DNA of 64,000 nucleotides. It comes from a phage. The notes beneath the pieces were generated by a model. It saw only the letters and a program-made list of their open reading frames with translations. It did no database searches and was not told where the DNA came from. The translations under genes and the position numbers were made by a program. The stretch lies in sequence record PX421306.1. The stretch is one strand, 5' to 3'. Below, piece after piece: positions 15,773 through 16,604 of this stretch (positions within the stretch are counted from its first letter, which is position 1; the number at the start of each line of letters is the position of its first letter).

Positions 15773-15848
15773 TGGTCGAGGCAGTAGGGATCGAACCTAC
15801 GACCTAGGACTTAGAAGGTCCTTGCTCTTCCTTCTGAGCTATGCCTCG
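15773..15848 (-). tRNA. tRNA-Arg (anticodon UCU)
   Basis: Hand-folded cloverleaf: acceptor CGAGGCA/TGCCTCG, D-stem GCTC/GAGC, anticodon loop CUUCUAA, T-loop TTCGATC, encoded CCA. Confidence 0.8.
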
Positions 15849-15852
15849 GATT

Positions 15853-15927
15853 TGGCGGACGTGATAGGATTCGAACCTATAACCAATCGCTTAACAGGCG
15901 ATCGCTCTGCCATTGAGCTACACATCC
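15853..15927 (-). tRNA. tRNA-Asn (anticodon GUU)
   Basis: Hand-folded: acceptor GGATGTG/CACGTCC, anticodon loop CUGUUAA, T-loop TTCGAAT, encoded CCA. Confidence 0.7.
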
Positions 15928-15931
15928 AAAT

Positions 15932-16018
15932 TGGTGGGGAGTGATGGAGTCGAACCACCCGAGTCGCAATGACAATGGATTTACAGTCCACACCGCTACC
16001 TCTACGGGATAACTCCCC
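15932..16018 (-). tRNA. tRNA-Tyr (anticodon GUA), long variable arm
   Basis: Hand-folded: acceptor GGGGAGT/ACTCCCC, anticodon loop CUGUAAA, long variable arm, encoded CCA. Confidence 0.7.
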
Positions 16019-16031
16019 TTAATTCTTAATT

Positions 16032-16106
16032 TGGTGGCCCTGGGTGGAATTGAACCACCATCTGGCGATTATGAGTCGCTTGCTTGAACCTTCCAGCTAC
16101 AGGGCC
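16032..16106 (-). tRNA. tRNA with CAU anticodon (Met or lysidine-modified Ile)
   Basis: Hand-folded: acceptor GGCCCTG/CAGGGCC, anticodon loop CUCAUAA, T-loop TTCAATT. Confidence 0.7.
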
Positions 16107-16107
16107 T

Positions 16108-16183
16108 TGGTGCTGATTGACGGAATCGAACCGCCGACCTTCTCATTACAAGTGAGTTGCTCTACCTACTAAGCTAAATCAGC
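16108..16183 (-). tRNA. tRNA-Thr (anticodon UGU)
   Basis: Hand-folded: anticodon loop CUUGUAA, T-loop TTCGATT, encoded CCA. Confidence 0.75.
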
Positions 16184-16188
16184 AAAAC

Positions 16189-16278
16189 TGGCGGAGGCGA
16201 TAGGATTTGAACCTATGAGTCGCCGGAACGACTGCCGGTTTTCAAGACCGGTGCATTAAACCACTCTGCCACGCCTCC
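16189..16278 (-). tRNA. tRNA-Ser (anticodon UGA), long variable arm
   Basis: Hand-folded: acceptor GGAGGCG/CGCCTCC, anticodon loop CUUGAAA, long variable arm. Confidence 0.75.
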
Positions 16279-16281
16279 AGT

Positions 16282-16354
16282 CTCCATACAAGGATTTGAA
16301 CCTTGGACCTCCTGATCCCAAATCAGGCGCTCTACCAAACTGAGCTACACGGAG
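16282..16354 (-). tRNA. tRNA-Pro (anticodon UGG), CCA not encoded
   Basis: Hand-folded: D-arm TAGCTCAGTTTGGTAGAGC, anticodon loop UUUGGGA; abuts 5' end of tRNA-Ser (dimeric precursor arrangement). Confidence 0.7.
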
Positions 16355-16364
16355 TAAATTAAAT

Positions 16365-16438
16365 TGGAGCGGATAATGAGAATCGAACTCACATCATCAG
16401 ATTGGAAGTCTGAGGTAATGCCATTATACGATATCCGC
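16365..16438 (-). tRNA. tRNA-Gly (anticodon UCC)
   Basis: Hand-folded: GCGGATATCGTATAATGG... anticodon loop CUUCCAA, T-loop TTCGATT. Confidence 0.8.
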
Positions 16439-16443
16439 AAATT

Positions 16444-16530
16444 TGGTGCGAGAAGTGGGACTCGAACCCACAAGGAAATCATTCCGCAGCATTTTAAGTG
16501 CTGTGCCTTTACCAATTTGACCATTCTCGC
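16444..16530 (-). tRNA. tRNA-Leu (anticodon UAA), long variable arm
   Basis: Hand-folded: GCGAGAATGGTCAAATTGGTAAAGG..., anticodon loop CUUAAAA, T-loop TTCGAGT. Confidence 0.8.
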
Positions 16531-16531
16531 G

Positions 16532-16604
16532 CTGGGAATAAAGGACTCGAACCTTTGCATCCTGGAATCAAAATCCAGTGCCTTACCAACTTGGCTAATT
16601 CCCA
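16532..16604 (-). tRNA. tRNA-Gln (anticodon UUG), CCA not encoded
   Basis: Hand-folded: TGGGAATTAGCCAAGTTGGTAAGG..., anticodon loop UUUUGAU; directly abuts tRNA-Leu (dimeric precursor). Confidence 0.75.

Follow-up and report, generated by a model that had tools for sequence, protein, structure and literature searches.

The locus described here raises the question of whether a ten-gene tRNA array in a T4-like phage is an expanded and rearranged version of the T4 set, or whether T4 is the form that has changed. The array lies in a 64,000-nucleotide stretch of phage DNA (PX421306.1), referred to below as the window. A first-pass annotation, based on folding the sequence by hand, had listed ten tRNA genes with Arg contiguous with the others. 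It had described the set as reaching beyond that of T4, which it gave as eight tRNAs without Tyr and Asn and with Arg apart from the other seven. That description of T4 agrees with the T4 annotation; the conclusions drawn from it are examined below.

Ten tRNA genes form a single array

ARAGORN recovered ten tRNA genes at 15773-16604, all on the minus strand, and exactly ten in the 64-kb window (Table 1). In the direction of transcription the order is Gln-Leu-Gly-Pro-Ser-Thr-CAU-Tyr-Asn-Arg. All ten also passed the gathering score (29 bits) of the Rfam covariance model RF00005; nine scored between 59.3 and 74.1 bits (E values of 1e-10 to 1e-14), and Tyr scored 30.2 bits. The two methods thus returned the genes, coordinates, anticodons and order of the first-pass annotation, including Tyr and Asn and the position of Arg(tct) beside Asn. 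Chance origin of the ten calls is excluded, and the genes are confirmed as genuine, with their anticodons correctly read.

As read from the sequence, the genes are separated by gaps of 0 to 13 nt, and CCA is encoded in all but two of them (Gln and Pro). tRNA-Gln adjoins tRNA-Leu with a gap of 0 nt, which is the layout of a Gln-Leu dimeric precursor, as in T4, and tRNA-Pro lies 1 nt ahead of tRNA-Ser in the layout of a Pro-Ser dimer.

Table 1. Features of the tRNA array and of the region downstream of it, in window coordinates.
Feature	Coordinates	Strand	RF00005 (bits)	CCA encoded	Basis and remarks
tRNA-Gln (UUG)	16531..16604	-	67.4	no	ARAGORN
tRNA-Leu (UAA)	16444..16530	-	59.3	yes	ARAGORN; long variable arm
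tRNA-Gly (UCC)	16365..16438	-	63.3	yes	ARAGORN
tRNA-Pro (UGG)	16280..16354	-	66.8	no	ARAGORN
tRNA-Ser (UGA)	16189..16278	-	62.6	yes	ARAGORN; long variable arm
tRNA-Thr (UGU)	16108..16183	-	71.7	yes	ARAGORN
CAU tRNA, T2-type allele	16032..16106	-	59.9	yes	ARAGORN
tRNA-Tyr (GUA)	15932..16018	-	30.2	yes	ARAGORN; long variable arm
tRNA-Asn (GUU)	15853..15927	-	74.1	yes	ARAGORN
tRNA-Arg (UCU), T2-type allele	15773..15848	-	68.1	yes	ARAGORN
116-aa ORF (ORF116), T2L trna.2 equivalent	15406..15756	-			between tRNA-Arg and rnaD
rnaD (species 2 stable RNA) homologue	15290..15409	-			alignment to annotated T4/T2L rnaD; region 95% versus T4
rnaC (species 1 stable RNA) homologue	15145..15283	-			alignment to T4/T2L annotation
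Terminator-like GC-rich hairpin and T run	15071..15094	-			downstream of rnaC; consensus match only

The CAU-anticodon tRNA is most likely tRNA-Ile2

The first-pass annotation had the CAU anticodon right but left this tRNA unassigned. Its sequence is the same as in T2, and it differs from T4 tRNA-Ile at 25 of 72 positions. The best E. coli matches are all annotated as tRNA-Ile (81.6% over the full 75 nt). In alignments, the acceptor GGCCC/GGGCC is common to ileX but not to metT or metZ, and the 15-nt anticodon stem-loop GCGACTCATAATCGC is likewise common to ileX and absent from metT/metZ. Elongator and initiator Met were ruled out on the ileX/metT/metZ alignment. Ikeuchi and colleagues are said to have found in 2005 that TilS tells tRNA-Ile2 from tRNA-Met by the C4-G69 and C5-G68 acceptor pairs. 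The acceptor found here, GGCCCTG/CAGGGCC, has C4-G69 and C5-G68 as in ileX, while metT has U4 and A5. The gene thus most likely encodes a tRNA-Ile2, in which C34 would be converted to lysidine for decoding of AUA; its allele is that of T2 and not that of T4 tRNA-Ile. Public labels for it conflict ("tRNA-Met" in T2L, RB27 and Nami, "tRNA-Xle" in PE37).

Genomic setting and flanking elements

The array lies downstream of 57B-ipI-trna.4-trna.3-trna.2 and upstream of rnaD-rnaC-e.8, as judged by BLAST collinearity with T4, T2, T6 and G50 and by the annotations of relatives. ORF116 occupies the position of T2L trna.2 and is absent from T4, T6 and RB27. It matches phrog_3355 (E value, 1e-54), a phrog of unknown function, and has no Pfam match; scans of the six flanking ORFs, ORF116 included, against Pfam and PHROGs assigned no function. 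The 3' part of rnaC has a tRNA-like T-arm, and Rfam gave a weak match to the tRNA-Sec model at 15146-15238 (E value, 0.95), far under the gathering score. At permissive E values over rnaC and rnaD, no family match was found beyond this subthreshold one. The hairpin downstream of rnaC is probably the end of the tRNA/stable-RNA transcription unit, as predicted from its consensus features. The same element, 30 nt in length, is repeated at 14510-14539. A promoter scan of 14900-17700 found 8 sites versus 8.4 expected from shuffles, i.e., no excess.

A single cassette separates the array from that of T4

Next, the array was compared with those of relatives. It is 99.8% identical to that of phage HZ_ZJUN4, and in approximately 398 phage records matches extend over at least 80% of its length. 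RB27 (KM607000) and vB_EcoM_Nami (MZ502380) match the window in all ten anticodons and in their order, strand and genomic position. The Tyr and Asn segment of RB27 is 100% identical to that of the window; RB27 differs in that tRNA-Arg is followed directly by rnaD, whereas the window, Nami, G50 and T2 have the 116-aa ORF between them. In an 11-gene variant (vB_EcoM_G50 and others), tRNA-His(GUG) lies between Asn and Arg, and the window lacks this ∼190-bp insert. Nine of the ten tRNAs shared with G50 have no mismatch, Ser differs by 1, and the Gln allele is the same.

The T2L/T2 cluster (AJ880101; Brok-Volchanskaya et al. 2008, PMC2330249) reads CAU-Tyr-Asn-Arg-trna.2-rnaD-rnaC, like the window, with 0 to 1 mismatches per tRNA. 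tRNA-Asn matches that of T2L at 75 of 75 nt, the SegB target within it included, and tRNA-Arg, which carries a C1-G72 pair, has 1 mismatch versus T2. As in the window, segB is absent from T2/T2L. In T2, however, ORF trna.1 stands where tRNA-Thr would be, leaving nine tRNAs; the window has Thr, and no trna.1 homologue was found in it. T2 also has a different Gln anticodon-arm allele. The Gln allele of the window has 8 substitutions versus T4, T2 and T6, all within the anticodon arm; an exact-pattern search for the two alleles in IMG/VR, which holds few T-even contigs, gave 2 and 0 matches.

In T4, Gln-Leu-Gly-Pro-Ser-Thr is collinear with the window, with 0 to 8 mismatches each. Leu has 0 mismatches versus T4, T2 and T6, Pro has the same sequence as in T4 and T2, and Thr has 4 mismatches versus T4. 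T4 and the window also share the flanking ORFs trna.2-trna.4, ipI and 57B, and rnaD/rnaC are 95% identical. The T4 Ser and Ile genes lack the encoded CCA that their counterparts in the window have; for Ser, TAA stands in T4 at the place of CCA. BLAST homology between the window and T4 is lost 20 nt inside the CAU gene and returns at rnaD. A single cassette thus separates the two, CAU-Tyr-Asn-Arg-ORF116 in the window versus divergent Ile(CAU)-segB-divergent Arg in T4. T4 and T6 both hold segB at this place, and their Ile and Arg alleles are ∼65 to 70% identical to those of the window; Arg differs from the T4/T6 allele at 21 of 70 positions. T6 (PMC13096335) has a tRNA-Tyr that differs from that of the window at 2 of 87 nt. 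Unlike the window, T6 carries segB and is missing Asn, Pro and Ser, and it has a "Thr" that is a Pro-5'/Thr-3' chimera. A tblastn search of the 64-kb window with SegB found no homologue.

The array is therefore very probably the segB-free form of the Tequatrovirus (T-even) tRNA cluster, followed by the T2L-type ORF trna.2, rnaD and rnaC. As the first-pass annotation had anticipated, Tyr and Asn are absent from T4. Nevertheless, the set is not distinctive: the annotations of RB27, Nami and many other phages show the same ten genes, Tyr-Asn-Arg is contiguous in T2, and Tyr is present in T6. Nor is the array rearranged, since its order is collinear with T4 and one cassette differs.

Predicted expression, codon supply and a possible role in anti-defence

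From the anatomy of the locus and established work on T4, the ten genes and the upstream ORFs would be transcribed as one polycistronic precursor. Maturation would rely on host enzymes, with RNase P forming the 5' ends and exo- and endonucleases the 3' ends. For Gln and Pro, each the first gene of an abutting pair, CCA would have to come from the host CCA-adding enzyme. Once mature, the tRNAs would supplement those of the host for codons that are far more frequent in the AT-rich phage than in E. coli (CAA, UUA, GGA, CCA, UCA, ACA, AUA and AGA), and the Tyr and Asn tRNAs would each reinforce a host pool that has one anticodon species (GUA and GUU). The T4 orthologues are classical, sequenced tRNAs, and T4 can grow without its tRNA genes on laboratory hosts. 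The tRNA region has also been called nonessential (PMC2330249).

Codon usage was computed per 1,000 over the 18,942 codons of the window ORFs and set against approximate reference values for E. coli. All cognate codons were enriched relative to these values, a correlative result: AGA, 11.0 versus ∼2.1; AUA, 13.1 versus 4.4; ACA, 20.5 versus 7.1; GGA, 22.1 versus 8.0; UCA, 18.5 versus 7.2; UUA, 30.2 versus 13.9; UAU, 33.3 versus 16.3; and AAU, 42.3 versus 17.7. For the amino acids of the two tRNAs absent from T4, for which the first-pass annotation had proposed a codon-usage comparison, totals in the window ORFs were 1.51 (Tyr) and 1.45 (Asn) times the approximate E. coli reference values.

The Tyr tRNA may also buffer the phage against defense nucleases that cut tRNA-Tyr. 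Overexpression or amplification of T6 tRNA-Tyr weakened Septu immunity, and T4, without tRNA-Tyr, cannot escape Septu (PMC13096335). Septu cleaves T6 tRNA-Tyr itself, so that protection works through dosage and a single copy is of only partial benefit (PMC13096335). A T5-type tRNA-Tyr likewise counters retron-Eco7 (PMC11555353).

It is possible, though on the unlikely side, that anti-defense is the main reason for which the array is kept, with Tyr and Asn (and His in the 11-gene relatives) replacing host tRNAs destroyed by nucleases. The presence or absence of accessory tRNAs would then mirror the defenses met by a phage lineage. Besides the Septu and retron-Eco7 results, deletion of the T6 tRNA region increased sensitivity (PMC13096335), and a hypothesis of anticodon-nuclease evasion has been laid out (PMC10264068). 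The phage tRNA-Tyr is found at 85 to 96% identity in unrelated groups, including rV5-like and T5-like phages, suggesting selection and exchange of that tRNA. All three variable tRNAs (Tyr, Asn and His) are of the GUN/queuosine anticodon group, a group cut by colicin E5-type nucleases, and the Gln alleles differ solely in the anticodon arm. However, the phage Tyr and Asn tRNAs have the same anticodon loops as their host counterparts (CTGTAAA and CTGTTAA), so no loop escape mutation is visible, and cleavage of T6 tRNA-Tyr by Septu also counts against this account. We know of no defense that targets tRNA-Asn with rescue by a phage tRNA-Asn. SP15 tRNA-Asn gave no rescue from PrrC170 (PMC11555353). 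Codon enrichment, by comparison, suits all ten tRNAs, and codon supply and anti-defense are not mutually exclusive.

A further proposal, which we consider distinctly improbable, is that the variable end of the cluster (Tyr, Asn and, in 11-gene relatives, His) is a swappable anti-defense module that homing endonucleases (segB and T2 trna.1) reshuffle or amplify. Its GUN tRNAs could out-titrate Septu and retron-Eco7 (Tyr) and colicin E5-like enzymes (Tyr, Asn and His). If so, the ten-gene phage would withstand these systems more effectively than T4 does, tRNA-Asn would count as a new anti-defense tRNA, and the Gln anticodon-arm alleles would belong to the same arms race.

T4 most likely carries the derived form

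The window differs from T4 because T4 has segB, a selfish homing-endonuclease gene (HEG), flanked by divergent alleles of Ile and Arg, where the window has CAU-Tyr-Asn-Arg. The direction of this change bears on whether the array can be called expanded. Previously, the 27-bp preferred cleavage site of SegB was mapped inside T2L tRNA-Asn. Homing of segB led to its inheritance at 99.6%, with a ∼1,250-bp T2L segment containing the CAU, Tyr, Asn and Arg genes excluded and replaced, and the authors concluded that segB was acquired recently by T4; the Tyr-Asn form was also found in RB1 and RB3 (PMC2330249). In the phage collection, Tyr and Asn occur together in 396 records versus 126 for segB. HEG biology, the published argument and these counts suggest that the polarity is most likely opposite to "expanded," with T4 as the HEG-invaded minority form.

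It is very unlikely that the window phage is newly expanded from an ancestral eight-gene T4-like cluster by gain of Tyr and Asn and movement of Arg. The reference genome, T4, does have eight tRNAs, and the 11-gene variants with His show that additions at that spot are possible. However, the order is collinear with T4, and the Tyr-Asn form is the majority one and is present in T2 and RB27 as well as in RB1 and RB3. Moreover, a mobile homing endonuclease encoded in the T4 cassette is specific for the Asn gene of the alternative cluster form, which it destroys, and the adjacency of Tyr and segB in T6 represents an intermediate consistent with loss through HEG invasion. Expansion is already contradicted by the homing data (PMC2330249).

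The tRNA-Asn of the window is intact and is a predicted SegB target, so that the CAU-Tyr-Asn-Arg segment should be lost by homing upon coinfection with a segB+ phage.

The tRNA-Tyr gene is very probably intact

The low Rfam score of tRNA-Tyr arises because the covariance alignment places its acceptor stem out of register. This tRNA has a long variable arm, with a 3-bp stem and a 5-nt loop, and the gene has 1 mismatch versus T2. Although the score is only 1 bit over the gathering score, the D stem has a C.C mismatch and T6 tRNA-Tyr has been called relatively unstable (PMC13096335), it is barely credible that some of the ten genes, chiefly Tyr, are decaying pseudo-tRNAs, since the low score is an alignment effect, the T6 orthologue, 2 nt apart, was seen on a Northern blot and rescues infection (PMC13096335), the sequence is 98 to 100% conserved across hundreds of phages, and the gene has an encoded CCA and, as drawn by ARAGORN, a perfect 7-bp acceptor stem. 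Tyr as a pseudogene was rejected on the functional orthologue, the conservation and the intact stem.

Discussion

The ten-gene cluster is an ordinary type of T4-like coliphage cluster (RB27 and T2 type) and is already known: hundreds of deposited genomes carry it as an annotated feature, and experiments were done in T2L (2008) and T6 (2026). As a discovery, this textbook-adjacent feature matters little. The array does identify the window as DNA from a Tequatrovirus without segB, of the T2/RB27 type, and it corrects the habit of taking the eight-tRNA set of T4 as the norm. Two predictions follow. Coinfection with T4 or T6 would lead to loss of the CAU-Tyr-Asn-Arg segment, and possession of tRNA-Tyr would make the phage better than T4 at withstanding defenses that cleave tRNA-Tyr.

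Ten contiguous tRNA genes on the minus strand

Exactly ten tRNA genes were predicted by ARAGORN in the whole window, all on the minus strand, in the transcription order Gln(UUG), Leu(UAA), Gly(UCC), Pro(UGG), Ser(UGA), Thr(UGU), a tRNA with a CAU anticodon, Tyr(GUA), Asn(GUU), and Arg(UCU). The Rfam tRNA model also exceeded its gathering score at each of these sites, at 59 to 74 bits for nine of them; chance is not an issue. The coordinates, anticodons, and contiguity of Arg proposed in the first-pass annotation were all confirmed by the two programs. tRNA-Tyr scored 30.2 bits, above the gathering score. 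In its ARAGORN fold, the acceptor stem is paired over all 7 bp, the variable arm has a 3-bp stem, and the D stem contains one C.C mismatch, whereas the Rfam covariance alignment began the acceptor stem two bases late; the weak score is thus due to an alignment artefact together with a real oddity.

Coordinates of the array and neighboring features
Feature	Coordinates	Strand	Remark
tRNA array	15773-16604	minus	832 bp
tRNA-Gln	16531-16604	minus	
CCA of tRNA-Ser	16189-16191	minus	
CAU tRNA	16032-16106	minus	CCA at 16032-16034
tRNA-Tyr	15932-16018	minus	
ORF116	15406-15756	minus	directly after Arg; position of trna.2 in the T2L record
rnaD homologue	about 15290-15409	minus	T4 stable RNA, species 2; after ORF116
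rnaC homologue	about 15145-15283	minus	T4 stable RNA, species 1; after rnaD
Terminator-like hairpin	15094-15071	minus	downstream of rnaC
phrog_2280 ORF pair	13856-15097		187 aa and 157 aa
GC-rich 30-nt hairpins	14510-14539; 15068-15097		one after each phrog_2280 ORF

Gaps within the array, read from the sequence, were 0 to 13 nt. The Gln-Leu (0-nt spacer) and Pro-Ser (1-nt spacer) pairs are dimeric-precursor pairs, as in T4. CCA is encoded in eight of the ten tRNAs, all except Gln and Pro, whereas T4 has TAA after Ser and TAT after Ile where the window Ser and CAU tRNAs have CCA; thus, CCA addition is needed for two tRNAs here versus four in T4. On this anatomy and classical T4 work, the ten genes would be cotranscribed as one polycistronic precursor and cut by host RNase P and 3' nucleases, and a host enzyme would supply CCA to Gln and Pro. 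A promoter scan around the array returned 8 sites, no more than the 8.4 expected from shuffled sequence.

The tRNA-Gln allele, common to phage G50, differs from that of T4, T2, and T6 by eight substitutions, all within the anticodon arm (positions 27 to 43) and compensatory in the stem, with the remainder identical. The loop is CUUUGAC in T4 and UUUUGAU in the window, the latter being the E. coli glnU loop. Such an arm-only swap is the pattern expected with anticodon nuclease or synthetase pressure.

The array is the majority form of the T-even cluster

The array was 99.8% identical to that of Escherichia phage vB_EcoM_HZ_ZJUN4 and was matched by 857 of 50,697 phage records, 398 of which covered at least 80% of it. 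It is not a new feature: T-even tRNA clusters of this form are already known and are in the majority.

Gene order in related clusters
Phage	Order
Window	Gln-Leu-Gly-Pro-Ser-Thr-CAU-Tyr-Asn-Arg-ORF116-rnaD-rnaC
RB27	ten tRNAs and order identical to window; rnaD right after Arg
vB_EcoM_Nami	ten tRNAs and order identical to window; ORF after Arg
vB_EcoM_G50 and many others	as window, but with tRNA-His(GUG) separating Asn from Arg
T2/T2L	Gln-Leu-Gly-Pro-Ser-(ORF trna.1)-CAU-Tyr-Asn-Arg-trna.2-rnaD-rnaC
T6	Gln-Leu-Gly-Thr-CAU-Tyr-segB-Arg
T4	Gln-Leu-Gly-Pro-Ser-Thr-Ile-segB-Arg-rnaD-rnaC

In a per-gene comparison, Leu, Gly, Pro, and Ser were virtually identical among the compared phages. The window CAU, Tyr, Asn, and Arg genes showed 0 to 1 mismatches each to T2, whereas T4 tRNA-Ile differed from the CAU tRNA at 25 of 72 positions and T4 Arg from the window Arg at 21 of 70. 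BLAST homology with T4 broke off 20 nt inside the CAU gene and restarted at rnaD, indicating one replaced cassette and no rearrangement. The first-pass description of a set "expanded and rearranged" relative to T4 therefore compared the two phages correctly but worded the difference misleadingly.

SegB, the product of segB, is a GIY-YIG homing endonuclease with a preferred 27-bp site inside T2L tRNA-Asn; the T2L, RB1, and RB3 clusters sequenced by Brok-Volchanskaya et al. lack segB, 99.6% of progeny of T4 x T2L crosses inherit it, and those authors concluded that it is a recent acquisition of T4 (PMC2330249). The T2L and window tRNA-Asn genes are identical at 75 of 75 positions, and SegB has no homologue in the window. 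The Tyr-plus-Asn segment was found (at least 80% coverage) in 396 phage-collection records versus 126 for segB. From these counts and homing endonuclease biology, we infer that the ten-gene form is the common, un-invaded state and the T4 eight-gene set a derived minority.

Two irregularities were seen in relatives. In T2, a 133-aa ORF, trna.1, which has no homologue in the window, replaces tRNA-Thr; record AP018813 names it "tail sheath monomer," and many adjacent product names look like transferred misannotations. In T6 (AP018814), the gene annotated as tRNA-Thr at 6643-6717 has the 5' end of tRNA-Pro (TCC-GTGTAGCTCAG) as its start and Thr sequence thereafter. The 3' part of Pro, Ser, and the 5' part of Thr were lost in a deletion between conserved D-arm sequences, and the acceptor stem of this chimera should no longer pair.

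The CAU tRNA is probably of the Ile2 type

Public annotations mostly label the CAU tRNA "Met," but three lines of evidence favor an Ile2 type. Its top matches among 5,424 E. coli genomes were all annotated tRNA-Ile (81.6% over the full length), and, in an alignment that took in ileX, a prophage tRNA-Ile, metT, and metZ, both its acceptor GGCCC/GGGCC (C4-G69, C5-G68) and its 15-nt anticodon stem-loop were common only to Ile(CAU) tRNAs. By the TilS determinants, reportedly described by Ikeuchi and colleagues in 2005, it is predicted to be lysidine modified and AUA reading. AUA occurs at 13.1 per 1,000 codons in window ORFs versus about 4.4 in E. coli. The E. coli sequences closest to the CAU tRNA are tRNA-Ile genes with two tRNA-Arg genes behind them (as in NZ_AP022105, 201-450); this layout resembles ileZ-argN-argO, the rare-codon tRNA set of lambdoid prophages, itself a phage-borne AUA/AGA set.

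Surroundings of the array

ORF116, a 116-aa ORF, matched only a PHROG without assigned function in a PHROGs scan and nothing in a Pfam scan. The rnaD/rnaC region (15145-15409) is 95% identical to T4; no Rfam family exists for these stable RNAs. A tRNA-like T-arm (GGGTTCGAATCCCGG) in rnaC, together with acceptor-like pairing, gave a sub-threshold tRNA-Sec match (E 0.95). Upstream of Gln are homologues of T4 ORFs trna.2, trna.3, and trna.4 and then ipI and 57B. Between an e.8-like ORF and rnaC, where T4, T2, and T6 have nothing, lie two ORFs of one PHROG, phrog_2280, with the common N terminus MK(S/T)YA(Q/E)FL(N/T)EA. Their trailing hairpins are 97% identical, and the arrangement looks as if a cassette had been inserted by way of repeated hairpins of terminator or regulatory type.

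Codon supply and host defense

Codons were counted in 79 non-overlapping window ORFs (18,942 codons) and compared with approximate E. coli values. The cognate A-ending codons were each enriched 1.5 to 5 times (AGA, 5.3; AUA, 3.0; ACA, 2.9; GGA, 2.8; UCA, 2.6; UUA, 2.2; CCA, 1.9; CAA, 1.6). The host has one anticodon species each for Tyr and Asn; phage use of these amino acids was 1.51 and 1.45 times that of the host, with UAU at 2.0 and AAU at 2.4 times. His use was 0.63 of the host value, which fits the sporadic presence of tRNA-His in relatives. This correlative enrichment supports the classical supply-and-demand model.

Identity to the window tRNA-Tyr is 95.7% for rV5-like myoviruses, about 92% for the Karamvirus and Cronobacter CR8-type phages, and about 85% for the T5-like phages. 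A phage-specific tRNA-Tyr lineage, with a conserved C.C mismatch in the D stem, appears to move between unrelated groups of phages. For both Tyr and Asn, phage and host anticodon loops are the same, so any protection would come from dosage or body differences rather than loop escape. The least ordinary possibility, which seems unlikely, is that the Tyr, Asn, and His tRNAs, with their GUN anticodons, make up a swappable anti-defense module that homing endonucleases shuffle. T6 tRNA-Tyr, which differs from the window gene by 2 nt, weakens Septu immunity when overexpressed or amplified, whereas T4, which lacks it, is unable to escape Septu (PMC13096335); retron-Eco7 is countered by a T5-type tRNA-Tyr (PMC11555353). 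These experiments support a second role for tRNA-Tyr besides codon supply, which the window gene may share.
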